A stretch of 39,937 nt of DNA from a virus (Duplodnaviria > Heunggongvirae > Uroviricota > Caudoviricetes), in the IMG/VR virus record IMGVR_UViG_3300045988_182320; one strand, 5' to 3'. The notes under the pieces are model-generated. The model was not told the origin of the DNA and ran no database searches. It was given only the letters and a program-made list of their open reading frames with translations. Positions 4,221 through 38,841 of the stretch are shown piece by piece. The position numbers and the translations under genes were made by a program. How positions within the stretch are numbered: position 1 is the first letter of the stretch; the number at the start of each line of letters is the position of its first letter.

Positions 4221-4266
4221 TTGATGAAAAGAACAAAGGTGGCTCAGGCACGAAGCGAGAGCCACC
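4221..4266 (-). terminator. Rho-independent terminator
   Basis: Perfect 8-bp stem ggtggctc (4238-4245) / gagccacc (4259-4266), 13-nt loop, followed on the minus strand by tttgttcttttc. Confidence 0.55.
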
Positions 4267-4322: not shown

Positions 4323-4919
4323 TTATGCCGCCTCCCATACAGAGCCATCGGAACCCTTGATGTCTCCGGACTCAGTCTCGATCTTGCCAGGATAGAACGG
4401 TGTAGGGCAGAAGTCTGTCGCCTCGGTGTTGACGGTCGTGGTGCAAGCATCGGTCACGCCGCTGCCCGATGCCTGGCTGACGGTAATCTTAGGTGCGAAT
4501 GCCTCGCAGCCGATGAGACGGGCACGACCCTTGCGGTCTTGCACCATCATGATGAGCTCGTCGTTGATAGCCATGGTAGCGAAGCCACTGATGTCCTCGT
4601 CGGTACCACCCACCACGAACTCGCCTTTGTTGAGGAACGTAGCGGAAGGTGCCTCGCCCTGAGTCTCTGCAGTAAAATTGCTCTTGGCATCTACGAGGTC
4701 GAGACTGTGCCACTTGGCATCGCTCGCCAAGGTGAAGTCGCCTGTATATTGAGCCAGCTTGGCCGGGTCTGTGGTCTTGTCATCAGCTGCTGGCAATGTT
4801 GGCCAAGTCAGGATCTGACTCTTGAGGATGAAGAATACACGAGGTTTAATGCCTGGGGCTATGCGAGCCCCAGGACATTTTTTGACTGATTTATATAAAT
4901 CTTTTGTAGTACAAGCCAT
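4323..4919 (-). CDS. Hypothetical protein (head-module neighbour)
   Basis: 198 aa, ATG at 4917-4919, immediately downstream of the capsid-like gene. Confidence 0.45.
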   Translation of the reverse strand: MACTTKDLYKSVKKCPGARIAPGIKPRVFFILKSQILTWPTLPAADDKTTDPAKLAQYTGDFTLASDAKWHSLDLVDAKSNFTAETQGEAPSATFLNKGEFVVGGTDEDISGFATMAINDELIMMVQDRKGRARLIGCEAFAPKITVSQASGSGVTDACTTTVNTEATDFCPTPFYPGKIETESGDIKGSDGSVWEAA

Positions 4920-4952
4920 AATTTAATCTCCTATATATAATAAGGTGAAACT

Positions 4953-6056
4953 TTACTCCTTGCCCTCATCGTCAGTGTCGCTTGAAGACGTATCCACTGG
5001 GTCGCCACTGGCAGTGTTGCTTGCAGCCTCTGCGAGCGAAGTCTTCTGGATGAGCGGTGTGGTACCATCGTTGGTGATGACAAGAAGGCGCTCTTTGTTG
5101 ATGCTCTCGTACTGGCAGCCGAAGAACTTGGTGGCGATGAAGTCGAGCTTCCAAGGGTGGTATTTTTCCACGCTGATCTTCTCCTCGTCGCTGTTGTTTG
5201 CCTCGTTGACACCCACGAGCATGTTGTTGCGAGTGGTGAGCTGGAAGAATGGCGCATTCTTCTTGTTGACGAGCGGTACCATCTCTACGTTGTCGAAGCC
5301 CTCGATGGTGTTGTGGTTGTAACCTGTATTGTATGGCACATTGCCAAACTTTTTGAGGTAGTTGCGGTTGTAGAGGTTGATGAACGCCTGTGGCACGTAG
5401 AGATAAAGCTTCTCTTCGCCAATCAGCTCTTCGTCAGCCGACTCGCAGATGGCCTGAGCGAAGTCAACGGCGTTGTCGTCGCTGATGGAAGCGTCGCTGC
5501 CCAGAATGTCTGAGACCTTGATGAGGTTGCCGAGTTCGCTAGACAGCTTGGCATTGGTCAACTCAGTCTTGGCGATGGTATCGAAACCATTGAAAAGGTC
5601 TTTTGAACCCTTGCCCTGGTCGTTGCGCACGGCATCGAAGAGGTGGAGGTTGAGATTCTTGCCCAGCTTGAGCGCAAGCAACTGCAGCACCTGAAGGGTG
5701 ATTGGCACGTTCTTAAGCGCTTCGCCATTCATGGCGTTGGCACCCCAGATAGTGGAATAAACCGAGTTAGGGGAGAACTTGATGTCAACGTTGCCGAGGT
5801 ACACCTGCAGGGTACGAGGTGTAATCTTAACGCCACCATCGCCCACACGGTTCTCGTCGTATGGACCGAGCTCAGCGTTGCCGAGCAACTCGCCCACGGT
5901 CTCTGAAACTCTGATGCCCGGGCGCAGGGTCATATATTTGAGCGACTGAGCCAAGCCCTTTGTCGGCATCGTAATCAACTGCGAACGGTAAGTTTTCGCA
6001 GTGTTCTGCAGCTGTACATCGACATCTGCAGGCGCAATGAATTTATTATCTGCCAT
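4953..6056 (-). CDS. Putative major capsid protein
   Basis: 367 aa ORF starting 2 nt after the protease/scaffold gene; assignment is positional (protease-scaffold-capsid order), no motif-level proof. Confidence 0.5.
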   Translation of the reverse strand: MADNKFIAPADVDVQLQNTAKTYRSQLITMPTKGLAQSLKYMTLRPGIRVSETVGELLGNAELGPYDENRVGDGGVKITPRTLQVYLGNVDIKFSPNSVYSTIWGANAMNGEALKNVPITLQVLQLLALKLGKNLNLHLFDAVRNDQGKGSKDLFNGFDTIAKTELTNAKLSSELGNLIKVSDILGSDASISDDNAVDFAQAICESADEELIGEEKLYLYVPQAFINLYNRNYLKKFGNVPYNTGYNHNTIEGFDNVEMVPLVNKKNAPFFQLTTRNNMLVGVNEANNSDEEKISVEKYHPWKLDFIATKFFGCQYESINKERLLVITNDGTTPLIQKTSLAEAASNTASGDPVDTSSSDTDDEGKE

Positions 6057-6057
6057 A

Positions 6058-7083
6058 TTATGCGAACTGATTTAAAGCATCCAACACTTGATCTGAGCAG
6101 AAATCCTCGACCTTGGTGTCATCGACAGCAGTGTGCGTGTCGCCACCAGGCTCTCCCTCCAGATCCTTCACTTTATCCTTCAGGTCATCTCTCTCCTTTT
6201 CGAGATTCTTGACCTGAGTCTCTAACTCCTTCTTCTCATCCTTGACCTTCTGAAGCTCTGTGTCTTTGTCGGTCACGGCCTTGGAGTCGGCAGCAATCTT
6301 ATCCTCCAGCTTCTGCATCTGCTCCTGAGAGATGGTGCAGTCCTTGGCTGAATCCTCTGCCTCAATGCCCTCGATGTTGAGGACATTGTTGATGTGAGTC
6401 CATTTTTTAATCATATTAATAATTTTGTTTTGAGATTTATCTTTACCGAAAATTCGGTCGATGAAGCTTGGCTTTTTATCATACCAAGAGTTGACGACCT
6501 CAGGGAGCACCGGAAGGTTGTTGTACTTGATGAAGTCTTGTGTCTGCTCTGTGATGTCAGCAGGTTTGCCATCCATGGACTCATCGACGAGACCCAGTTC
6601 GATGCACTCATCGACGGTGTGCCACTTTGCCTCGGACATCACCTTGACGATGTCCTCGTGCTTCTTGCCCGAGCGATCGCAGTAAACGTTGGCGATGATG
6701 TTGTCGATTTTCTGCTGGTTCTCTTGCTGTTTTTGAAGCTGCTCGATGAGCGAGCCTATCTGCTCCTCGTTGAGCGCAGACCACACAAACTGCTCGGTAG
6801 AGCACTTGTGTACCAGGAGCAAGCTATATTTGCTCATGCGAATCTTGCTGGCACCCATCGCACAGATGGTGGCAGCAGAGGCAGAGAAGCCCGCCTGGAA
6901 GTCAACGGTCACATCGCCATGGGACTTGAACATCTGGCAGATGGCGAGACCTGCGGAGACCTCACCACCCAAGGAGTCGATGGCAACATCGACGTGCTTG
7001 TCTTTGTTAGCCTTGAGAATGTCGCGGACCATGAGTTTTGTCCACGAGCCAATATATCCAGTGATAGAAATTTGGTACTTCAT
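6058..7083 (-). CDS. Prohead protease (ClpP/S14-like) fused to a coiled-coil scaffold-like C-terminus
   Basis: N-terminal IDSLGGEVSAGLAIC...GFSASAATICAMGASKIRMSKYSLLLVH resembles the ClpP Ser/His active-site regions; C-terminal half is K/E/D-rich coiled coil (KVKDEKKELETQVKNLEKERDDLKDKVKDLE). Confidence 0.8.
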   Translation of the reverse strand: MKYQISITGYIGSWTKLMVRDILKANKDKHVDVAIDSLGGEVSAGLAICQMFKSHGDVTVDFQAGFSASAATICAMGASKIRMSKYSLLLVHKCSTEQFVWSALNEEQIGSLIEQLQKQQENQQKIDNIIANVYCDRSGKKHEDIVKVMSEAKWHTVDECIELGLVDESMDGKPADITEQTQDFIKYNNLPVLPEVVNSWYDKKPSFIDRIFGKDKSQNKIINMIKKWTHINNVLNIEGIEAEDSAKDCTISQEQMQKLEDKIAADSKAVTDKDTELQKVKDEKKELETQVKNLEKERDDLKDKVKDLEGEPGGDTHTAVDDTKVEDFCSDQVLDALNQFA

Positions 7084-7106: not shown

Positions 7107-7114
7107 CAAAGATA
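7107..7114 (-). promoter_or_regulatory. Bacteroidota-type -7 promoter box
   Basis: Plus-strand caaagata = minus-strand TAtcTTTG, 24 nt upstream of the protease start codon. Confidence 0.45.
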
Positions 7115-7143
7115 TATAATAATGTATAAGGATAAAAAAACTT

Positions 7144-8227: not shown

Positions 8228-8247
8228 ATAGCTATGCAATTTTCGTG

Positions 8248-8255
8248 CAAAGATA
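8248..8255 (-). promoter_or_regulatory. Bacteroidota-type -7 promoter box
   Basis: caaagata on plus strand (TAtcTTTG on minus), about 21 nt upstream of ATG 8227. Confidence 0.45.
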
Positions 8256-8369
8256 CAAAGAAAATTTGAAATAACTAACGATAATCGGTAAAAACTAACT
8301 TTTATCAGTAAATTTGGTGTGATATAATTTCGTCCGAAAAGTTTGTATTTTTGTATCGTACAAACAAGG

Positions 8370-12606: not shown

Positions 12607-12812
12607 GATCCATCATTGATAATTTGCTCGATGACCTCTCTGTCGATGGCACGCCAAGTATTGGTGCGCATCTTATTGTAGATGGTGTTCTGGCTCATCT
12701 CTAGCTTTAGCTGCAGTGTGGCCATGAACTTGCTTCTCTTTTTGCGTGGTATCTCATTATACCATGCGAGGATGATATTTTCATCATCATTTTTTTTGTT
12801 TTTTTCTTGCAT
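12594..12812 (-). CDS. Hypothetical small basic protein, first gene of the leftward early operon (Cro-like by position)
   Basis: 72 aa, ATG at 12810-12812, transcribed divergently from the HTH regulator; -7 box at 12841-12848. Confidence 0.4.
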   Translation of the reverse strand: MQEKNKKNDDENIILAWYNEIPRKKRSKFMATLQLKLEMSQNTIYNKMRTNTWRAIDREVIEQIINDGSWEK

Positions 12813-12840
12813 ATTCCAATATTTATTATTAATTTTGTTG

Positions 12841-12848
12841 CAAAGTTA
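12841..12848 (-). promoter_or_regulatory. Bacteroidota-type -7 promoter box (leftward early promoter)
   Basis: caaagtta on plus strand (TAacTTTG on minus), 29 nt upstream of ATG 12812; a plus-strand TAatTTTG lies immediately adjacent at 12830-12837. Confidence 0.45.
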
Positions 12849-12933
12849 GTAATAAAAATCGGAAAATACTAACGAAAGTAAGTAAAAACACCTATGATAA
12901 TAGGTTAAATATTATTAATTAAATTAGGTAATT

Positions 12934-13311: not shown

Positions 13312-13535
13312 TACGAAACATAATTCGTAAGATGAATCCTTATATATAATAAGGTGTATAAAATATATCGTATAATCTCAGCAGTGATATCCAACTCGTT
13401 AGTCCTGCCGCCGCAACCAATATCGGGTAAGAAGTTGGAAACAACATTCTTATCCGATTTTCCGTTTTGGGGAGGGACGGAAGCGAAATACTTTATTGTT
13501 GAATATCATTGGCTGGCAACGGACAATGAAAAAAA

Positions 13536-14699
13536 ATGACTGCAAAAGAAATTGATTTTTTGAGCTCGCGTGAAATAGTAGGTTTCACGCTGCCTGTGTT
13601 GCATACCAAGGGCGGTTACTGGTATGTTGACTTTACTGCCTTTGACCCTGTTTCGGGTCGGATGAAGCGCAAGAAATATATGCTTAATAGGTACAAGACT
13701 GACCACAAGAAGCGTATGATGGGTACCTTGCTTATCCACAATATCACGGCAAAATTGACCGCTGGATGGAATCCTTGGGTGAATGCCGACAAGTCGAGAC
13801 AATTCACCGAAATACCAATTATCTTTAGTCGTTATCGTGATTATATTAAGTCGATGACCGACAAAAAGTCGATGAAGGAAAAGACCTCTATCGACTACCT
13901 CAGCCGCCTCAAGACTCTGGAGTCTTTCATCACTGAGTGCAAGAGTGTCAAATATGCCTATCAGATTGACCGTGCCTTCGCCATCGACTTCTTAGACCAC
14001 CTGATGTATGACCGTGATGTGAGTGCTACCACAAGAAACAACTATCGCTCTTGGCTTGTCTCCTTCGGCACTTGGCTTATGGATAGAAAATATATCAGCG
14101 AGAACCCTGCCATCGACATCAGAAACATCGCTCAGAAGGAGAAGTTCAGAGACCCTTTGACCGAGGGCGCGCTTAAGAAGCTGAAGACTTATCTCTATGA
14201 TAACAACAGACATTTTCTCTTGGCTTGCCTCTTTGAATATTATACCTTTATCCGACCGAATGAGTTGACGCAGATAAGAATCAAAGATGTGTCGATTGCT
14301 GACCAGACGGTCTTTATCAGTTCTGCCATCAGCAAGAACCGTAAGGACGGACTTGTGGCATTGAACGATGAAATCTTGAAGCTCATGATAGAGCTGAAGA
14401 TATTTGAGCATCCGGGACATTGTTTTATCTTTGGCAAGGGGTTGAAGCCTGGTGAGGAGCGAGCACCTTATAACCAACTGAGAGTAGAGTGGGGCAAGAT
14501 GCGAGATGCTATTGGGTTTCCGAAGGAGTATCAGTTTTATAGCCTGAAGGACACTGGCATCAGGGATTTGGCGAACGCACAGGGTATCGTGGTCGCCAAG
14601 GATCAGGCACGCCACTCTGATATATCTGTGACGAATCGATATATCAAGAACCAGATGAAAGTGAACGAGGAGACCAAGCACTTCAAAGGTGGGCTTTAG
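13536..14699 (+). CDS. int: Tyrosine site-specific integrase
   Basis: 387 aa; C-terminal ARHSDISVTNRYI (His and catalytic Tyr box) and upstream HCFIFGKGL region typical of phage tyrosine recombinases; stop tag at 14697-14699. Confidence 0.85.
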   Translation: MTAKEIDFLSSREIVGFTLPVLHTKGGYWYVDFTAFDPVSGRMKRKKYMLNRYKTDHKKRMMGTLLIHNITAKLTAGWNPWVNADKSRQFTEIPIIFSRYRDYIKSMTDKKSMKEKTSIDYLSRLKTLESFITECKSVKYAYQIDRAFAIDFLDHLMYDRDVSATTRNNYRSWLVSFGTWLMDRKYISENPAIDIRNIAQKEKFRDPLTEGALKKLKTYLYDNNRHFLLACLFEYYTFIRPNELTQIRIKDVSIADQTVFISSAISKNRKDGLVALNDEILKLMIELKIFEHPGHCFIFGKGLKPGEERAPYNQLRVEWGKMRDAIGFPKEYQFYSLKDTGIRDLANAQGIVVAKDQARHSDISVTNRYIKNQMKVNEETKHFKGGL

Positions 14700-21035: not shown

Positions 21036-21057
21036 AATTGAATATTTTATTTTATGG

Positions 21058-21065
21058 CAAAGGTA
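21058..21065 (-). promoter_or_regulatory. Bacteroidota-type -7 promoter box for the tape-measure-like gene
   Basis: caaaggta on plus strand (TAccTTTG on minus), 23 nt upstream of ATG 21035. Confidence 0.45.
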
Positions 21066-21080
21066 ATAAGGAGGAAAATA

Positions 21081-21119
21081 TAATAAAAATACGAGACCGT
21101 ATGTATTGCGGTCTCGTAT
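21081..21119 (-). terminator. Rho-independent terminator
   Basis: Perfect 11-bp stem atacgagaccg (21089-21099) / cggtctcgtat (21109-21119), 9-nt loop, followed on the minus strand by tttttatta. Confidence 0.6.
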
Positions 21120-21461: not shown

Positions 21462-21490
21462 AATTTGCAAGTTTATTATTATCTTTGTTG

Positions 21491-21498
21491 CAAATTTA
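21491..21498 (-). promoter_or_regulatory. Bacteroidota-type -7 promoter box
   Basis: caaattta on plus strand (TAaaTTTG on minus), 30 nt upstream of ATG 21461. Confidence 0.4.
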
Positions 21499-21683
21499 AT
21501 AATAATATTTGGAATATGCAAGTATTTTGTGTTAAATCTTTGATTTGTTTTGCGGTATGGTGGAAAAATATTATATTTGCAGTGGCAATTTAATTTTAGA
21601 AAGTATGAATAAAGATTTTGCTTTAATATTGGTAAACATAATATGCGCCTTAACGGCATTTGTTTGTATGATAATCACTATTG

Positions 21684-23531: not shown

Positions 23532-23558
23532 GGTGAATCTTGTTTTTGTTTTACAGTG

Positions 23559-23566
23559 CAAAGATA
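23559..23566 (-). promoter_or_regulatory. Bacteroidota-type -7 promoter box for the lysis genes
   Basis: caaagata on plus strand (TAtcTTTG on minus), 28 nt upstream of holin ATG 23531. Confidence 0.45.
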
Positions 23567-23580
23567 AGAAGGGTAGGGTG

Positions 23581-23617
23581 ATAATAAAAATACGAGACCG
23601 CCCTAACGATCTCGTAT
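23581..23617 (-). terminator. Rho-independent terminator
   Basis: Stem atacgaga (23590-23597) / tctcgtat (23610-23617), 12-nt loop, followed on the minus strand by ttttt; shares an identical 20-mer with the terminator at 21080-21099. Confidence 0.5.
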
Positions 23618-24045: not shown

Positions 24046-25620
24046 TCACGTGAATTTATAGAACTTCTTTTTGAATTTATTGTGAAGCTCTGCGACCACG
24101 GTGGAGAAGGGTAGCTCATCACGACAGAAGTCGTTGAGGGCTTGGTCTATCAAGATCTTGGAGCCTGTATAGAGGTAGTGCTCCAGAGGTTGCCATACCT
24201 CGGTGCCGTCTGGCTCCAGGTGGTCGATGATGCGATAGCGTAGGGAGAGGCGCTTCTTGGGCACCTCTTTGGTGACCATGTGGGTGGAGCCGTCCGGGGC
24301 GGTCTCCTCTTGCTGGATGGTCTCCTTCTCTATCACCGAGTCATCGACCTTGTAGTCTATCACTTGAACGAGGAACTTGTTCTCGTCCTGACCCTCACGG
24401 CAGATGATGTCCTCGATGGACTGCTGCTGTGATTTCTCCATACCGTCAAAAGGCACGCGCGCACGGCGAGCCTTGACGAGTTTACCGAATCTTTCCATAC
24501 CGATTTTCTTATATAAGTTTTTAGAGTTTGCGTGGATGCCCAGACCTAGGCGAGAGGCTGCCTTGAGCTGTATCTGGCGGTCTGTGAAGCCCGCCTTGCG
24601 TAAGTTGGCGATCTGTCTGCAGAGGTCGTGCTTGAACCGCTTGCGCAACAGGGCGTGGTCGGCGTAGATGATCTGACCGCAGAAGTCGATGCCATCGCAG
24701 GTGCGGTGGATACCCCAAGACTTATTGATGGATAGGTGCCAGTCACGGGCGAGGTGCATCACGGCAAGCTCTGCCATCAGCCTGAGGAACACCTTATCCT
24801 CGTGGAGGATGTAGATGTTGTCCATGAAGCGGTAATAATGGCGAAGACCTTGGCGGCAGAAGCGCTCGAACCTATCGTTGAGCGACTTCACTCCCCCGCA
24901 TAGCAGTTGAGCTTGCTGCTGAGTGCGACAGGTAACGAGCATGTCGATCACGTAGCGAGCCTGCCAGTAACGGAACTTGTCGGTGTCTTGGAGAATGTCG
25001 AAGCATCGGAGTGCCAGGTAATCGAAGCGGGCGAGGAAGAGCTGACCCAAGAGTTGGGCGAGCTTGACGCCGAGCACGATGCCTGGATTGAAGCTATCGA
25101 CCACCTCGTCGATGAAGGCGAGGAGCTTGCGGTCTTTGATCTTGCGGCGATATTCACTTTTGAGAAGAGCGTGGTCTATGCTCTGAAAATAATGGTGAAT
25201 ATCCATGGGCAAGCAGTAGAAGGTATCTTGCTGTGGCGAGTTGAAGATGTCTCGCTTGACAAGATTATAGAAATAATGGGTGCCCTTGCCCTTGGAACCA
25301 GCCGGACTGTGGCTGTAGAGTGTCTTGCGAAGGTTATCCTCTACAGGTTGCAGGGCAGCGTGCTGGATGACGTGGTCGATAACGGGCAGCTTGTTGACTT
25401 GGCGATGTTTTGGATAGTCGATATCTTTGGCGACATAGGCTGAGGTATGCCAAGTTTGTTGGGTGTAAGCATCGAGCATGCGTCCGATGTTATGGTCTAG
25501 GTTTGCCTCGAATTTTTGGACCGCACGGCGAGACATCTTTTGTCGGGCGTAGTCATAGAATGCCCGACGAAAGTTGTCTAGTGTCTCGACCTGTGGCGAT
25601 ATGTTGCCAAACCTTTTCAT
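24046..25620 (-). CDS. Reverse transcriptase of a diversity-generating retroelement
   Basis: RT motif A LPMDIHHYFQSIDH; motif B-like GIVLGVKLAQLLGQLFL; motif C position reads YYRFMDNIYIL (non-canonical); primer-grip-like DFCGQII; adjacent to the TR/VR pair. Start placed at first ATG 25618-25620; the track ORF begins with GTG at 25689. Confidence 0.8.
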   Translation of the reverse strand: MKRFGNISPQVETLDNFRRAFYDYARQKMSRRAVQKFEANLDHNIGRMLDAYTQQTWHTSAYVAKDIDYPKHRQVNKLPVIDHVIQHAALQPVEDNLRKTLYSHSPAGSKGKGTHYFYNLVKRDIFNSPQQDTFYCLPMDIHHYFQSIDHALLKSEYRRKIKDRKLLAFIDEVVDSFNPGIVLGVKLAQLLGQLFLARFDYLALRCFDILQDTDKFRYWQARYVIDMLVTCRTQQQAQLLCGGVKSLNDRFERFCRQGLRHYYRFMDNIYILHEDKVFLRLMAELAVMHLARDWHLSINKSWGIHRTCDGIDFCGQIIYADHALLRKRFKHDLCRQIANLRKAGFTDRQIQLKAASRLGLGIHANSKNLYKKIGMERFGKLVKARRARVPFDGMEKSQQQSIEDIICREGQDENKFLVQVIDYKVDDSVIEKETIQQEETAPDGSTHMVTKEVPKKRLSLRYRIIDHLEPDGTEVWQPLEHYLYTGSKILIDQALNDFCRDELPFSTVVAELHNKFKKKFYKFT

Positions 25621-25828
25621 AAGCGGTGTAATGTCTGTGTTGAACGGTGTATAAACTGTGTATAGTCTGAATCGTCTGCTTTTGTACACTTGATAACCTT
25701 CGACCGGATGACCGTGTTGTCATCATCTACCAGCTGTCTTATTAATGTGTATGTATCGCCATGGGGCGAGGATTGACCCTGTAATCTCGAAGTGGGAGCA
25801 AACGACCCACGAAGAGATATGTCTGTAA

Positions 25829-25950
25829 GTTGAGGGCGGCGCCGTAGTTCACATTGGCATTCGAGACAGCATTGTTCACGTTGAGCGTCGAAAGACCGCA
25901 TTGACCACCATTGTTAGCGTTAGCACCACGAAGGCAGACACGAAAACCGG
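25829..25950 (-). repeat. DGR template repeat (TR)
   Basis: 122-nt intergenic copy of the target gene 3' region; 110/122 identical to VR; every mismatch is a plus-strand T in TR, i.e. a coding-strand adenine; the same-frame translation carries Asn (AAC) where the VR varies. Confidence 0.85.
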
Positions 25951-25984
25951 CACCTAGGGTCACACCCTGGTATCATAACCGCCG

Positions 25985-25992
25985 CAAAGGTA
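25985..25992 (-). promoter_or_regulatory. Bacteroidota-type -7 promoter box upstream of the TR
   Basis: caaaggta on plus strand (TAccTTTG on minus), about 35 nt upstream of the 5' end of the TR in the direction of TR-RT transcription. Confidence 0.45.
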
Positions 25993-26188
25993 ATAAAAAT
26001 AATCGGTATGGAAGCATGTCAAAGAGCTTTTTTGATGTTTTTATTGATATTTTTTTTGTCGCCGACCGCCACAGGCGGTAACTTAAGGCGAGCTACGCTC
26101 GCTGGGTGCTTCGGCTTCGCCGAGGGTGCTCAGGTCTCTTTTGCACACCCAGTAAACCGATGCACACCCAGCAAACTGATGTAGTCTT

Positions 26189-27661
26189 TTAGGCCGCCTC
26201 GTAATACACGGGTTCAACGGACCACTCGGATGCTGCTTCGCAGAGGGCGGCGCCGTAGTTCACATAGGCAAACGAGACAGCACCGTTCACGTTGAGCGCC
26301 GAAAGACCGCAAGGACCACCATTGTCAGCGCTAGCACCACGAAGGCAGACACGAAAACCGGATGTAGCGCCGCTAGTATTCCAGAAATAGCTAGTCCAAT
26401 AGGTTGACTCGGATGCGCCCGTGGCGGTCGGGAAGTTCTCCAGATGCTCCATCGAGAGCGTCTTGATAAAGCCTTCGCCCTTGGTCGGCGAGGTGCTGTA
26501 AGCCACCATGCCATCGGCGGAACCTATCGTCCACGTGCCGTAGATGGACGGTGCCACGAGATGGGTCACGGAAGTGTCCTCGTTGCAACGCACCTGCTCG
26601 TCATCCATGTGTCGCCACAATAAGCCGAAGCCATTTTTGTAGCCGAAGAAGGATGGTATCTTGGCGGTATAGACCACGGTGCCATCGTCTTTTTTGACCT
26701 CGTAGCTCGCCTCGCCGCAAGCGTCGCCCAGCTCGATGCCGGCAGACATCGGCACGATAGGGCGATAGCCGTTGTAACCACCCCAATCAGGCATCTGTGT
26801 CACGCCAGCTCCGAGACCACCCTGGTAGAGACCGTTGGCATCTTTTTGGCTGTTGATGGCATCCTGGTCGTAGTGGGTGCCGAAGATGACCCCGAAGAGC
26901 ACGGCGATGGCAGAGGTGTGGCGCATGGTGGTGCAGAGCCAGCCTGTACCATTCTTGCGGGCTGCGGCACGCCAGTATTCGGTAGTCTGGTTGGTGGCAG
27001 CCTTGCCCAGCATGGTGCGGTTGGTGTTATCTAACGTTGAGTCGTTGTTGCCGCCTCGGTAGTCTGTGCCCTCGTTGATGTAGCTCACCAGCTTGCCTGT
27101 GCTGCGCTCTAGCGTGGCGAAGCCAGCGGCGGAGATGCTGCCCACAGGTATCTTGTAGTTGTACTCGCCAGGTATTGGCGTAGGGCTGACCATCTCGTAA
27201 TGGAGTCTGCCCACGGTCTTGATGACCATGTACCACTCCTTGCCCCAGCCCCACTGGTAATGCCCCTCTGAGCCATCGAGCTTGGCTGTCTCGCCGGTGG
27301 CATACTTGTGGTGGTCTTTGGAGTCGAGCTTGCGACGGGAGTGGTCATTCTTGACCAGATAACAGCCCAGACCCAGCTCCGTTGGTAGGGTCTGCAGTAA
27401 CTCTAGCGAGCCCACATAAGTGGCGGCTTTAGGGGTTGCATTGTCGAGGTTCCACACTCGACCACACCAAGGATGCTGTCCCATTTGGACGGCGCTTTTG
27501 AGCGACATCTGCTCAGACCTGCCGGATTTTTTGTCGAAGACCTCGACAATCTTGTCAGTGGCGCTCATGTCTGACTGTGGGAGGTCGTCAACCTGTTGAC
27601 CTCCATCGAAAGCGGCTATGATAGCCTTGAGCTTACTCTCTTCTTCTGATGTTAATGCCAT
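26189..27661 (-). CDS. DGR target protein (putative receptor-binding tail fibre) with C-terminal variable region
   Basis: About 490 aa from ATG 27659-27661 (MALTSEEES...; track ORF starts with TTG at 27709); C-terminus ...GFRVCLRGASADNGGPCGLSALNVNGAVSFAYVNYGAAL is encoded by the VR; stop tta at 26189-26191. Confidence 0.8.
   Translation of the reverse strand: MALTSEEESKLKAIIAAFDGGQQVDDLPQSDMSATDKIVEVFDKKSGRSEQMSLKSAVQMGQHPWCGRVWNLDNATPKAATYVGSLELLQTLPTELGLGCYLVKNDHSRRKLDSKDHHKYATGETAKLDGSEGHYQWGWGKEWYMVIKTVGRLHYEMVSPTPIPGEYNYKIPVGSISAAGFATLERSTGKLVSYINEGTDYRGGNNDSTLDNTNRTMLGKAATNQTTEYWRAAARKNGTGWLCTTMRHTSAIAVLFGVIFGTHYDQDAINSQKDANGLYQGGLGAGVTQMPDWGGYNGYRPIVPMSAGIELGDACGEASYEVKKDDGTVVYTAKIPSFFGYKNGFGLLWRHMDDEQVRCNEDTSVTHLVAPSIYGTWTIGSADGMVAYSTSPTKGEGFIKTLSMEHLENFPTATGASESTYWTSYFWNTSGATSGFRVCLRGASADNGGPCGLSALNVNGAVSFAYVNYGAALCEAASEWSVEPVYYEAA
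26240..26361 (-). repeat. DGR variable repeat (VR)
   Basis: 122 nt inside the last ~57 codons of the target gene; differs from TR only at 12 positions corresponding to TR adenines (TR 25830, 25831, 25855, 25860, 25861, 25872, 25873, 25888, 25901, 25902, 25915, 25920). Confidence 0.85.
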
Positions 27662-27683
27662 AATAAAAATTATATTTAATCGA

Positions 27684-28448
27684 TTAAACAATGCGTAATT
27701 TATCACCAACTTTTCTAAGCTTGCCCGATGCCGACAGGCGAAGGCGAGGCTGGCGCACGGTGATGCTGACCTCTTGCCAGAGCGGTGTGTTGGCGGTGGG
27801 GATGACCCAGAACTTGGTGGTGCCCTCGCCCTTGATGATGAGGTTGCCGCTTGGGTCTGCCACGAGCGAGTCGCCCTCGGCTCGCTGGAAGAGCACGCTC
27901 TGAGGGAGGTAGCTCGGCAGGATCTGCACGGCGATGCGCTGAGCCACCTTGTTGCGTAGGCTTATCTCGGGGAGATAGGTCAGGTTCATGCGAGCTGGCG
28001 CGATGAAGCCTGTGGTTATCTGAGCGGCGAGACCATCCATCTGCGCTATCTTGGCATCGGCTCGCTTGGATGCCGCGTCAGCCTCTGCAGCCTTGGTCTC
28101 TGCCAAGGCTGCCTGTGATGCTGCAGCCTCGCCCTGCTCGCCAGCCGCCTTGGCTGCGCTCTGGGCGAGGTTAGCCGCCTTGTTGGCATCGTCGGCCGCA
28201 CCCTGCGCTCTGACGGTCGGTGTCTTGTCGAGCCACAAGCGCCACTTGGCGTTGGTATCTGAAGGAGTCGTCGTGTTGCCATCCTCTAGGGAGGCGAAGA
28301 CTCCTGACGATGTGTGAACGATGTCGCCCTCGTCGTAGCCCTTGACGGTCTGGCCATCCTCATCTTGATAGGAGTAGCCCGACTGCCAGGTGCCCTGGTC
28401 GGTGAAGGCGACATTGCCCACGATAATGATGTTTGTGTTATCTGCCAT
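27684..28448 (-). CDS. Hypothetical protein (tail-fibre region), Ala-rich central coiled coil
   Basis: 254 aa, ATG at 28446-28448. Confidence 0.45.
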   Translation of the reverse strand: MADNTNIIIVGNVAFTDQGTWQSGYSYQDEDGQTVKGYDEGDIVHTSSGVFASLEDGNTTTPSDTNAKWRLWLDKTPTVRAQGAADDANKAANLAQSAAKAAGEQGEAAASQAALAETKAAEADAASKRADAKIAQMDGLAAQITTGFIAPARMNLTYLPEISLRNKVAQRIAVQILPSYLPQSVLFQRAEGDSLVADPSGNLIIKGEGTTKFWVIPTANTPLWQEVSITVRQPRLRLSASGKLRKVGDKLRIV

Positions 28449-29920: not shown

Positions 29921-32900
29921 TTAATATGCGTGGTTCAGCTTGCGCGCTGTGTATTTGGTCGTGTAGTCACTCACCTTGTTGCCCATGGTTGAGTTATAGA
30001 CCAGCAGGAACGTCGCACTTTCGCCCTGTCCCATCTCTATGTAATCTTTGTTGCCGCAGTTCTCATCGAGAATCAAAGGTAACTCCTCTTTGTTCCATGC
30101 GTAGGAATCGCTTTTGTCTTTGATCTTGTTGCGCCCATAAATGAAGAAGTATGTCGTGCCTGGCTCAGCGACCACCGTAAATGTCACGGCGAAGTTGGTA
30201 GATGAGCCACAGCCTAATGCGCTGCGCACCTCAGACAGTGTTGGCAGCGTTATGCCGCTTGACGAGACGTAGCTGTAGATGAGCCAGACGTTATTCTCAG
30301 AAATCTTGGCATAGCCATTATAGATGGTGTTTTTTGTGCTAAGCGCACATCTGCTATACTTATATCCACCTATCCATCCATTGAGTACGCCATTGCCAGC
30401 ACCTGTGAAAGCAAAATTATAGGCACCGTTTTTAGCCGAGAGTATGGCTGCGATATTGTAACCAAGCCCCCACCAGTCGCTGCTGTCCTCATTTTCGAAT
30501 CGAGCCACCGCACGCTGTCCTGATGACGCTGGTAGTACGTTGCCACCGATGCCCGCAAAGCATTTATGGGTATCGTTGCGAAATATGATGTATGCATCAT
30601 TGGTAAATGGGTCGTTTGTCAGACCCGTGCCCTGGATAGTGAATCCAGCGATCTTGCCCGCCAATGCCTCCATGGAGCCATCTTTGTTGATTTTGAAATT
30701 GCTGTTGGCCGTGACCACACCGTTAAGGTTGATTTGGTCTGCCGTGATGGTGGCAGAGGAGATGCCGTTGGCAATCATTGTCTTGATGGTAGCCTCGGAT
30801 AGAATCTTGCCATCGACACCCTCGATTTTTGTAGTCAGCGCATTGTAGTCTGCCGTCACAAGCAAGCCACCTTTGTTTTTGAGCGTGCCATCGGCATTGA
30901 ATCGCTCGCTCATCAGGGCGTTGTAGTCAGCGGTGGTGATAAGATAGCTCGTATCTTTGAGCTTGCCATTGGCATCGAAACGAGCAACTGCCGAAGACCA
31001 CGAATCGGCGTTTTGACTGACCAACGATATAGTCGGACCATAATCGTTGCGTATGTCTGAGCCTACGCTGTCGGCGTGTCTCCTGGCTTCGGCAACGGAA
31101 CTGTTGAGGGCATTGTAGTTGTCAGACATAGTCCCTTGCAAAGTGTTTTTGGCTGCATTCAGCTCGTCTTTTGTCGCAGCCTTGCCCACCGTGGTATTGA
31201 TGCCATTGACCGTTATATTTAACTCAGCGAGTGCCGCCTTGGTGCCGTTGGCAGTATTGGTGACGCTCTCGACACGTGCAGTGATGCTGTCGATGTCGGT
31301 GTAGATGCCAGAAATTTTCTCGTTTGTTCTATCCTGCCAGGTGTTGATGAGGTCGATGCGACCTGCCTCTATCTCTATTCTTGACGAGAGTGTTGTGTTG
31401 AGTTCGCCGTATCTCTTATCGACATATAGGCGTATTGCCTCTTTCTCAGCGTCCAGCTCGATGCCGAGCTGAGTTGTGGTACCATTGACCTTGTCGATGT
31501 TTTGTCCCAGCAGCTTGATGTTTTTGGCCGTCTGAAGTATTTGTGTCGAGACGGTCTTGCTCAGGTTGTCGAGCGGCTCGTCGGTGATGGTGAGCAGCGC
31601 GACGTAGATGTCTTCTGTATATCGGAGCACGAAGTCGCCGGTGCCATTCCACTTGCCATTTAGCTCTACCGTCTGCCACTCTGCCGAGTATGGCACGCTG
31701 ACGCTCTGGGCTGACAGGTCGTTGGTCTTGCCTTCGACAGCCTTGCAACCCTCGAAGCCAAAGGTGAGGGTGCCAGCAGTCTTGGCGTAGATGCGAGCAC
31801 TTATATATAAGGTGTCTTGCACCTCGGTGTAGTCATCGCCAGTGGTGTTCATGCCATCCTCGCCTTTTTCTGCCGATGGCTGGGTATATTCCTTGTGGGT
31901 ACCGGGTTTGCGGATGAGATCATTGGCTTGTTTGATGCCGCTGTCCTGTATGTGCAGCATGTTGCGACCCTCGTTGTTGTCGATGCTCACTCGGTGGTTG
32001 CCACTCACGGTGGCGGCACCATTGACCATGACAGGTAAGCCATTGGCATCGACCCAGAACTGGGACTCGTCTGTATCGTCGATGGTCCAGCCATCAATGA
32101 GCTGCTCATCGTTATAGCCTATCGCCGTCAGAAACTGACCGTTATGGAGGTAGTTGTTCTCCTCTGTCGCCTCGTAGGAGGTCTGTGCGAAGCGGGTGGC
32201 GAACTGGTTCTGCAGCATCTGTATTTTGGTGTCGATGCTCTCACCTGTGCGGCGGAGCACGAAGTCGCCCGTGGCGTAGAGGTTCTGCAGGAACTCACCG
32301 AAGCCTGATAGTGCACCGAAGAGTGGATGGGTGATGCCCCGTAAGTTGCCGAGGCGACCTTTGAGCGCATTGTCTGGGTCTGTCTTGAGACCATAGATGA
32401 TGTCCATGTAGGGCGTATCGCTGCCCACAGTCATCATCTGTATGATGCCCTTGCGGTCGGGGTCGGTGAGGTTGTCGACCCTAACAAAAGTGTCTCGCTT
32501 GGTGATGAGCTGCTCTGCGGTGGCACCCTCCATCGATGAGGTGAAGTTCTTGAACTTGACCCATGCTTGCATATCCTCGCCACTGCCCTCGCTGCCCACC
32601 TCTGTCACGATAAGCTCGTATCGCTTGTTGACATAGTGATTGTTTTCGGTGGAGGGCATGCCATTGTACTGCTGCACCATCACGTAGTCATCCTTGCGGA
32701 ATGGGTTGTACATCCTGCCCTCGTGGGTGTCGAGATAGACCCTGCCTGTCTCTGGATCGTAGTGGTCAACCTCTAGCATCGCCGTGAAGATGCGGTTGTC
32801 ATTCTCGCCCAAGAGTTGGGAGATAATCATCTCGAAGATGCGCATGGTACCACGCACGATGAGATTATCGAGCTCTAGACCATACCTATTCTCTTGCACC

Positions 32901-33400
32901 CCGGCAGCGTTGGTCGTGGGGTTGTTGGCGAGTCGCCAGCCCTTGCCATCGAGGAAGCCCGAGACGAAGTCGGGAGAGCCTATGGTATCGTCAAAACGAG
33001 CAGCGCCCTTGACGTGCAGCGCACTGACTGTCGCCAAGCCCCACGCCAGGATCTCTTCGATGCAAAGCTTGTAACCCCCATTCTCTTTTGTGGCGAGGCA
33101 GAAGCCTTTTTGACCAGCCTCGGAGTAGTCATCAGTGGCGATGGAGTGGGCGATGATGTCGCCCTCTTTGGAGAAAGAAAAGAGGTTGCCTATCTTGATG
33201 CCCTTGAGAAAGGTGATGAGCCCATGGGCTGTATCGTCGTTGATGGCGGAGAGTTTATCGTTGTCAGCAGAGGAAGCATAGTCGAGCAGGGACAGGAAGG
33301 CGTTGCCAATGCGGCTTGCCGTATTGGCGTGCTTGACTCTCTCGTCACGGATGCCCTCGAAAGCCTCTCTGATTTTGTTGATGTCTTTATTTTCTGCCAT
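29921..33400 (-). CDS. Large tail fibre / host-specificity-like structural protein (putative)
   Basis: 1159 aa; G/N/T/S-rich repetitive beta-like segments and a central coiled-coil region; position within the tail-fibre block; ATG at 33398-33400. Confidence 0.5.
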   Translation of the reverse strand: MAENKDINKIREAFEGIRDERVKHANTASRIGNAFLSLLDYASSADNDKLSAINDDTAHGLITFLKGIKIGNLFSFSKEGDIIAHSIATDDYSEAGQKGFCLATKENGGYKLCIEEILAWGLATVSALHVKGAARFDDTIGSPDFVSGFLDGKGWRLANNPTTNAAGVQENRYGLELDNLIVRGTMRIFEMIISQLLGENDNRIFTAMLEVDHYDPETGRVYLDTHEGRMYNPFRKDDYVMVQQYNGMPSTENNHYVNKRYELIVTEVGSEGSGEDMQAWVKFKNFTSSMEGATAEQLITKRDTFVRVDNLTDPDRKGIIQMMTVGSDTPYMDIIYGLKTDPDNALKGRLGNLRGITHPLFGALSGFGEFLQNLYATGDFVLRRTGESIDTKIQMLQNQFATRFAQTSYEATEENNYLHNGQFLTAIGYNDEQLIDGWTIDDTDESQFWVDANGLPVMVNGAATVSGNHRVSIDNNEGRNMLHIQDSGIKQANDLIRKPGTHKEYTQPSAEKGEDGMNTTGDDYTEVQDTLYISARIYAKTAGTLTFGFEGCKAVEGKTNDLSAQSVSVPYSAEWQTVELNGKWNGTGDFVLRYTEDIYVALLTITDEPLDNLSKTVSTQILQTAKNIKLLGQNIDKVNGTTTQLGIELDAEKEAIRLYVDKRYGELNTTLSSRIEIEAGRIDLINTWQDRTNEKISGIYTDIDSITARVESVTNTANGTKAALAELNITVNGINTTVGKAATKDELNAAKNTLQGTMSDNYNALNSSVAEARRHADSVGSDIRNDYGPTISLVSQNADSWSSAVARFDANGKLKDTSYLITTADYNALMSERFNADGTLKNKGGLLVTADYNALTTKIEGVDGKILSEATIKTMIANGISSATITADQINLNGVVTANSNFKINKDGSMEALAGKIAGFTIQGTGLTNDPFTNDAYIIFRNDTHKCFAGIGGNVLPASSGQRAVARFENEDSSDWWGLGYNIAAILSAKNGAYNFAFTGAGNGVLNGWIGGYKYSRCALSTKNTIYNGYAKISENNVWLIYSYVSSSGITLPTLSEVRSALGCGSSTNFAVTFTVVAEPGTTYFFIYGRNKIKDKSDSYAWNKEELPLILDENCGNKDYIEMGQGESATFLLVYNSTMGNKVSDYTTKYTARKLNHAY

Positions 33401-33416
33401 ATTTTTTATTTTGATG

Positions 33417-33424
33417 CAAAGATA
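33417..33424 (-). promoter_or_regulatory. Bacteroidota-type -7 promoter box
   Basis: caaagata on plus strand (TAtcTTTG on minus), 17 nt upstream of ATG 33400. Confidence 0.4.
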
Positions 33425-33452
33425 GGTATGATGAGAACTATATAAAAATACG

Positions 33453-38756: not shown

Positions 38757-38779
38757 ATCAATGTCTCATTAAAACGATG

Positions 38780-38787
38780 CAAAGATA
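38780..38787 (-). promoter_or_regulatory. Bacteroidota-type -7 promoter box
   Basis: caaagata on plus strand (TAtcTTTG on minus), 24 nt upstream of ATG 38756. Confidence 0.45.
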
Positions 38788-38800
38788 GGAAGGAAGGGGA

Positions 38801-38841
38801 GAAAATAAAAATACCTGATTGTCATCACGACAACCAGGTAT
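38801..38841 (-). terminator. Rho-independent terminator (imperfect hairpin)
   Basis: atacctg (38811-38817) / caggtat (38835-38841) with an inner ttgtc/gacaa helix; followed on the minus strand by ttttattttc. Confidence 0.4.

Follow-up and report, generated by a model that had tools for sequence, protein, structure and literature searches.

Why the same 16-bp word, TATATATAATAAGGTG, should occur exactly in two intergenic spacers of one phage, kilobases apart, is the question raised by the short spacer between the gene of a likely major capsid protein and the 198-aa gene that follows it in the head operon. We searched the whole stretch of DNA analysed (39,937 nt, hereafter the window). The two exact copies reported in the initial annotation, S1 and S2 (Table 1), are both present, on the same (+) strand and each in non-coding DNA, and their left flanks are as similar as described, AATCTCC at S1 and AATCCT at S2, a 1-nt indel apart. 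Nothing else in the window matches with two or fewer mismatches, and a single match with three mismatches lies at 7111; the word is thus not a common one genome-wide. Shuffling within 30-nt blocks gives a chance expectation of 0.17 direct repeats of at least 16 nt, and of 0.03 AT-rich ones. Three other exact 16–17-mer repeats of the window, all in coding DNA, look accidental, and its further repeats are those of a diversity-generating retroelement (DGR) and a promoter-linked 20-mer. A chance match is unlikely, then, but calling it very unlikely was an overstatement given this expectation and the three coding repeats. Because the window by itself yields a p of only a few percent for the repeat, it is the comparison with relatives that decides.

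The window is a temperate Segatella copri siphophage that carries nearly all of its genes on the minus strand. Segatella copri host genes lie at the attR junctions of integrated relatives, where a full tRNA-Met(CAT) gene stands at the core, and the block AGTCCTGCCGCCGCAACCA is common to attL, attR and the window, which therefore carries an intact attP. Compared with GenBank phages by megablast, the window gave no match. About 3.3 kb between its last (39937) and first (1) bases is missing; the piece is present in the 99%-identical relative L315 (13456-16784), so the window is an incomplete, permuted genome, and the missing piece holds a further copy of the motif, S3.

Table 1. Positions of S1, S2 and associated features in the window
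Feature	Positions	Strand	Remarks
Intrinsic terminator closing the head operon	4227-4266	-	GGTGGCTC...GAGCCACC, then T-run
Head operon	4323-7083	-	Three genes; protease by family matches
198-aa protein	4323-4919	-	No assigned function
Spacer of 33 nt, 367-aa gene stop to 198-aa gene ATG	4920-4952	-	Translation-initiation region of the 198-aa gene
S1, exact 16-mer TATATATAATAAGGTG	4932-4947	+	Minus (gene) strand CACCTTATTATATATA, then GGAGATTAAATT, then ATG
367-aa protein, likely major capsid protein	4953-6056	-	
ClpP-like head protease	6058-7083	-	Family matches
Sp, degenerate copy ATATATAATAATGTATAAGG	7112-7131	+	Head-operon promoter spacer; abuts -7 box TATCTTTG
Two 6-N4-6 operators, ACTAAC-gaaa-GTAAGT and ACCTAT-gata-ATAGGT	12868-12905 (12868-12883, 12890-12905)		Upstream of HTH gene; covary by lineage
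Cro/CI-type HTH regulator, 125 aa	12934-13311	+	C-terminal coiled coil; Pfam HTH_26 1.8e-6, PHROG 3
P arm of attP	13312-13400	+	Holds operator-like site 13313-13328 and S2
Operator-like 6-N4-6 site ACGAAA-cata-ATTCGT	13313-13328		Directly past HTH stop, in P arm
Perfect dyad CCTTAT-ATATA-ATAAGG	13338-13354		Overlaps S2; weak as RNA hairpin
S2, exact 16-mer	13341-13356	+	P arm of attP; 3′ untranslated region of HTH gene
attP core AGTCCTGCCGCCGCAACCA	13401-13419	+	3′ end of host tRNA-Met(CAT); real crossover region
Tyrosine integrase	13536-14699	+	
Shortened variant TTATATATAAGGTGT	31801-31815	+	Codes for DTLYIS in 1159-aa gene; rejected as family member

S1 occupies the middle of its spacer, 12 nt upstream of the ATG of the 198-aa gene, and the mRNA strand reads TAA agttt CACCTTATTATATATA GGAGATTAAATT ATG. 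Folded as RNA, this spacer has less structure than its shuffled controls (z +0.15 to +1.18). The operon has a Bacteroidetes-type promoter, with the -7 box on the minus strand at 7114-7107. Among about 22 relatives with capsid proteins 74-99% identical to that of the window, S1 is nearly invariant, TATATTATATAAGGTG and TATATATAAAAGGTG being its variants, while the DNA around it is only ~79-84% identical; in more distant relatives a short AAGGAGGTGAT-ATG spacer takes its place. Next to the spacer, the likely capsid gene is hypervariable in its last ~35 codons (4956-5060) among otherwise 90-98% identical relatives, and this variation ends exactly at the stop codon before S1. The + strand has a strong hairpin of terminator type at 4852-4883 (9 bp, of which 7 are G-C, plus a T-run), antisense within the 198-aa coding sequence and ~50 nt from S1.

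S2 lies between the HTH gene and the integrase gene, 29 nt past the HTH stop and 44 nt to the left of the 19-bp tRNA-Met core. The earlier idea of a recombination-related site was right about location, in that S2 is inside the P arm of attP, and wrong if taken to mean the crossover, which is the 3′ end of the tRNA-Met gene. As an att core the 16-mer was rejected, the shared att block being AGTCCTGCCGCCGCAACCA and the 16-mer a phage-only sequence 44 nt away. It was likewise rejected as a typical set of integrase arm-type sites, since the P arm holds one copy only; the P′ arm (13420-13535) has no copy at up to three mismatches. A protein-binding or recombination-related role of the 16-mer is nevertheless possible, since S2 sits within the P arm.

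The P arm also shows how S2 behaves when its surroundings change. In three window-type alleles S2 is exact, even where changes in (TA)n length destroy the CCTTAT/ATAAGG dyad that overlaps it, and the dyad is disrupted in sister alleles that retain the 16-mer (L505: CCTGATATATATAATAAGGTG). The L499/L259 lineage has CTATATATAATAAGGTA at S2 and a P arm in which nothing else can be aligned; S2 thus forms an island of 15-16/16 identical positions when window-type and L499-type P arms, which differ on both sides of it, are compared. Other lineages carry TATATATAAATAGGTA, CTATAATAAGGAAC or unrelated sequence here. S2 has been lost or replaced in several lineages (L253, L256, L708) and is therefore dispensable, and among lineages with 86-100% identical integrases it may be full, shortened or absent. 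Two further observations concern this region. The P′ arm gives the tRNA a replacement terminator hairpin in the lysogen (13422-13458 plus a T-run, within 13401-13468), and a predicted 61-codon ORF at 13354-13539, which could exist only in the circular form, starts with a GTG inside S2, runs through the att core and overlaps the integrase start by ATGA.

Comparison with relatives indicates that the 16-mer is one instance of a clade-specific putative cis-element, TATATA(TA)ATAAGGTR, asymmetric and with ~13-14 informative bases, which recurs at four or five orthologous gene boundaries. The word-frequency check proposed in the initial annotation bears this out: the 13-mer core, at one mismatch or less, occurs at 12.6 per 100 kb in the close clade (50 matches in 397 kb) against 0.29 per 100 kb in other Bacteroidales relatives (5 in 1.73 Mb), a 43-fold difference. 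Each copy has its fixed place in non-coding DNA. S1 is in the capsid/198-aa spacer, S2 in the P arm of attP and Sp within the head-promoter spacer; S1b stands, in some lineages, where the next operon begins, and S3 at the far end of the packaging operon, ahead of its terminator.

At the head promoter, several lineages have a full copy of the motif between the -33 and -7 elements. In relatives Sp is uninterrupted and fused to the -7 box (ACCTTATTATATA|TCTTTG), and in the window it is interrupted by 5 nt. The part kept in all lineages is TTATTATA, directly before the -7 box, and this invariant part could simply be promoter sequence. S1b lies 5-9 nt upstream of the ATG of the first gene past the head-operon terminator in the L499, L331 and L707 lineages; together with S1 and a third copy in L331 it forms a set located 5-13 nt upstream of an ATG in sense orientation. 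S3 follows immediately after a stop codon and directly precedes a strong terminator, on the sense strand of the late genes, and is conserved although the sequence of the adjacent terminator stem differs between lineages and stays paired. The same variants turn up at different sites: L273 carries AAATAGGT at S2 and L316 and L319 carry it at S3, and the L321 type has AAGGnACAGG at both S2 and S3. Orientation tracks position, in that all copies before start codons read YACCTTATTATATA on the sense strand and the 3′UTR copies read the complement.

Not every resemblance to the word belongs to this family. Scanning a viral collection for the 16-mer, a 17-mer and a 15-mer variant returned matches of which those listed are dominated by unrelated phage families; more than 120 viral contigs unrelated to this phage group carry the exact 16-mer, in contexts that are likewise unrelated, and the word itself is therefore not specific to the group. 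The shortened variant that the initial annotation placed near 31800 does exist (ttatatataaggtgt, a 3-nt deletion form of the 16-mer), but we rejected it as a copy of the motif. Synonymous sites diverge, relatives that encode DTLYVS use gacaccctctatgtgagt, and one near-identical allele of the 1159-aa gene already disrupts CACCTTAT; since synonymous sites are not conserved in relatives with the same or nearly the same peptide, the variant is a coding coincidence. Matches to CCTTATTATATA in host flanks were discarded as signal-peptide coding sequence. An Rfam search of the window found DGR-associated RNA only, with no match at the motif, and a literature search on the motif strings found unrelated papers only. 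On this evidence the motif is a real, clade-specific, conserved intergenic element, for which we compare possible functions below.

One reading would have the two AT-rich spacers match by chance, or each hold a promoter or a terminator, and we judge this quite unlikely. For chance one can cite the other accidental 16-17-mers of the window and the word's presence in many unrelated phages; against it stand the 0.03 AT-rich repeats expected from the block shuffle, the conservation and the 43-fold enrichment. Short AT-rich promoters do exist, as the T4-type late promoters (TATAAATA) illustrate, and this counts for a promoter. Bacteroidetes sigma-A promoters, however, have a -7 TAnnTTTG box and a -33 TTTG some 19-21 nt upstream, and S1 and S2 lack the TTTG of the -7 box. 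As the initial annotation had observed, the 16-mer does not fit TAnnTTTG, and no such box occurs at either site: the minus strand has TATAGGAG (S1) and TATAAGGA (S2) at the -7 position, and no -7 box was found on the + strand at S1 or S2. Sp, which fills the spacer of such a promoter, is the only copy that abuts a real -7 box. The alternative promoter element suggested earlier finds no model that fits every copy in either orientation, one orientation firing into the S3 terminator and the other starting at or after the S1b ATG, so that each makes no sense for at least one copy. A + strand small-RNA gene upstream of the protease gene was also rejected, its + strand -7 box being lost in the L499 lineage. 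As for termination, the hairpins of S1 (-1.8 kcal/mol, z +0.15) and of the S2 dyad (-4.2 kcal/mol, z -0.78) are no better than those of shuffled sequence and have no U-tract, and a terminator scan called neither S1 nor S2.

Elsewhere in the window, canonical Bacteroidetes promoters (TA(t/c)CTTTGCA, minus strand) mark the starts of transcription units at 8229-8274, 12822-12867 and 21039-21108, and others of the same family do so at 23557-23609, 33398-33443 and 38778-38830. The early promoter region has a 51-nt inverted duplicate (12806-12856 and 21472-21522, 82%); the copy at 21472-21522 lies in an island of 35% G+C at 21-22 kb, where it may serve a moron-like insert as a second regulated promoter.

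Another candidate is the HTH regulator of the immunity region, whose operator the 16-mer had been proposed to be. The operators turn out to be other sequences, 6-N4-6 palindromes that covary with the HTH allele: they differ among lineages with 100%, 82%, 75% and 64% identical HTH proteins, and the motif TATATAATAAGGT is common to those lineages. The motif was rejected as an HTH operator on geometry, S2 being 6-N5-6 rather than 6-N4-6 and S1 and S3 having no dyads, and on covariation, since operators change with the HTH allele and the motif does not. A weaker form of the idea, in which the motif is an auxiliary operator of the Cro/CI-type HTH protein or of the 72-aa first early protein, draws on the S2 dyad CCTTAT-N5-ATAAGG, whose half-site is one base off the operator half-sites ACTTAT and ATAAGT, and on the position of S2, 9 nt from the operator-like site. 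It meets the same objections, N5 spacing and dyads missing from S1 and S3, and in addition the operators vary with the HTH allele (ACTAAC, ACTAAT, ACCTAT) around a constant motif and sister alleles without the dyad retain the 16-mer; we hold it to be very improbable. The operator-like site in the P arm is a different matter. In relatives it reads ACGAAC-gata-GTTAGT and matches the operators of its own lineage. Its presence inside the P arm hints that a protein of the immunity region may also bind attP, in the manner of Cox or Apl.

Our tentative preference, held with less than even confidence, is that the motif is the recognition site of one sequence-specific, probably DNA-bending, putative protein, either phage-encoded or a host nucleoid protein and not the Cro/CI-type HTH regulator. 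At S2 the bound protein would help to shape the attP intasome, like the accessory bending and directionality factors of other tyrosine-integrase systems, and at Sp and S1 it would modulate expression of the head operon. The clade-specific density, the asymmetric, information-rich core and the near invariance of S1 amid ~79-84% identical DNA all point to such a site, as do the persistence of S2 as an island through unalignable P arms and dyad-breaking (TA)n changes, its place 44 nt from the core, at a distance expected of an accessory site, the reappearance of identical variants at separate loci (S2, S3), the full copy within the head-promoter spacer in several lineages, and the weakness of rivals at the RNA level, with marginal hairpins and no compensatory covariation. 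Against a protein site, the copies are single and kilobases apart, neither clustered nor helically phased; S1, S2 and S3 are not at promoters; the all-lineage part of Sp, TTATTATA, could be plain promoter sequence; S2 is lost or replaced in L253, L256 and L708; and a DNA-binding model does not predict the correlation of orientation with position. There is also no candidate protein: searches of the small early proteins against PHROG and Pfam gave no matches, so none is nominated.

That correlation is what the main rival, at the RNA level, would explain. The 3′UTR copies (S2 and S3; UAUAUAAUAAGGUR) would pair with the complementary YACCUUAUUAUAUA just upstream of starts (S1, S1b), thereby adjusting translation or RNA stability. 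In lysogens, for example, any leaky translation of the 198-aa gene could be silenced by the repressor mRNA, or the repressor mRNA could itself be titrated by late mRNA. Since S1 and S2 share a DNA strand but belong to opposite transcription units, their RNAs are complementary, and the orientation fits every copy. The predicted duplex of the S2 3′UTR with the S1 start has an 18-bp perfect core reaching the GG of GGAG and, at -32.3 kcal/mol, is the best of 38 translation-start regions (next -23.9; shuffled 3′UTRs -16.3 +/- 3.5, minimum -28.4). S3 is single-stranded beside a hairpin with a lineage-variable but paired stem, an architecture of 3′UTR-derived small RNAs. The changes do not compensate one another, however: S1 stays as it is where S3 (L316, L319) or, in other lineages, S2 has changed, S2 stays as it is where S1 has changed (L499, L331 and L707), and S2-S1 complementarity falls to 7-10 nt in other lineages. 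Perfect 16-mers are, moreover, atypical of trans-acting small RNAs. Such pairing strikes us as unlikely, and we are as doubtful of the full RNA-level circuit, in which the copies in the repressor-like mRNA and the packaging-operon 3′UTR would act as antisense seeds against the head and packaging gene starts. Equally unlikely in our estimation is a re-used cassette with no common present function, in which the AT-rich spacer of the head promoter, or a translation-start region, was copied to other boundaries by duplication, gene conversion or mosaic-phage recombination, leaving S1 as a ribosome-loading part and S2 as a relic. Sp joins these 14-16 bases directly to a canonical -7 box; S1, S1b and the third L331 copy all precede an ATG by 5-13 nt in sense orientation; S1 RNA is unstructured; the minus strand of S2 has the look of a translation start (AAGGA or GGGGAG) that no gene follows; and copies within one genome are alike, suggesting homogenisation. 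An unselected relic, on the other hand, should not persist as a 15-16/16 island in diverged P arms, S3 is kept while the neighbouring terminator stem changes, and no clear recombination breakpoints were found at the copies, the one sharp change near S1 being that of the hypervariable capsid C terminus.

Known systems share some of these traits with the putative protein site. Like the accessory sites of lambda attP (IHF H1/H2/H′, Xis/Fis), S2 is single, asymmetric and AT-rich and occupies the P arm at a distance from the core of a few helical turns (44 nt); sites of the E. coli IHF type also occur at promoters and operon ends. Unlike them, S2 is missing in some sister lineages with ~90% identical integrases, and most copies of the motif are far from attP. 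The IHF consensus WATCAANNNNTTR is absent from the motif, although the consensus of a Segatella factor may differ. The boxes of P2 Cox and 186 Apl, small proteins that each serve as excisionase and as transcription regulator, may resemble the motif, of which copies lie in attP (S2) and at a promoter (Sp), although the invariant part of Sp may be plain promoter sequence. The first gene of the operon divergent from the repressor is the position of cox and apl, and here that gene encodes the small (72-aa) early protein. Cox and Apl sites are, however, arrays of helically phased direct repeats where the copies here are single, and the operator-like site 13313-13328 fits that paradigm better than the 16-mer does.

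Among antisense and 3′UTR-derived phage RNAs, such as lambda OOP, which is antisense to cII, the layout of S3 is familiar (stop codon, single-stranded AU-rich seed, terminator), and S2 RNA is likewise perfectly complementary to a translation-start region; the differences are the missing covariation and a complementarity that is long and perfect rather than a short seed. The boundary or linker sequences of mosaic lambdoid phages are similar in being short conserved sequences exactly at the gene boundaries of a mosaic family, and differ in that breakpoints were not found to coincide with the copies here.

Among the bacteria of the human gut, Segatella (Prevotella) copri is a dominant one, and prophages of this family are very widespread in it: more than 1000 contigs carry the HTH protein of one sister lineage. 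Almost nothing is known of the regulatory DNA of its phages. For this family the analysis maps the core of attP, the operators and the canonical promoters, and separately from these a conserved motif family. Should a protein indeed bind the motif in attP and in the head promoter, this would offer a handle on the coupling of integration and excision to late expression in Bacteroidales phages; if the RNA pairing were true, it would be an unusual 3′UTR-based control that links a lysogeny transcript directly to late-protein synthesis. As a cis-element the finding is solid but modest, with a function proposed from comparative sequence evidence. Apart from the motif, the window carries a complete DGR (24046-27709), with a reverse transcriptase on the minus strand (24046-25689), an Rfam RT-17 RNA (25672-25773), a template repeat (25832-25950) and a variable repeat (26243-26361) at the 3′ end of a tail protein gene (26189-27709), in which 10/10 internal mismatches fall at template adenines.
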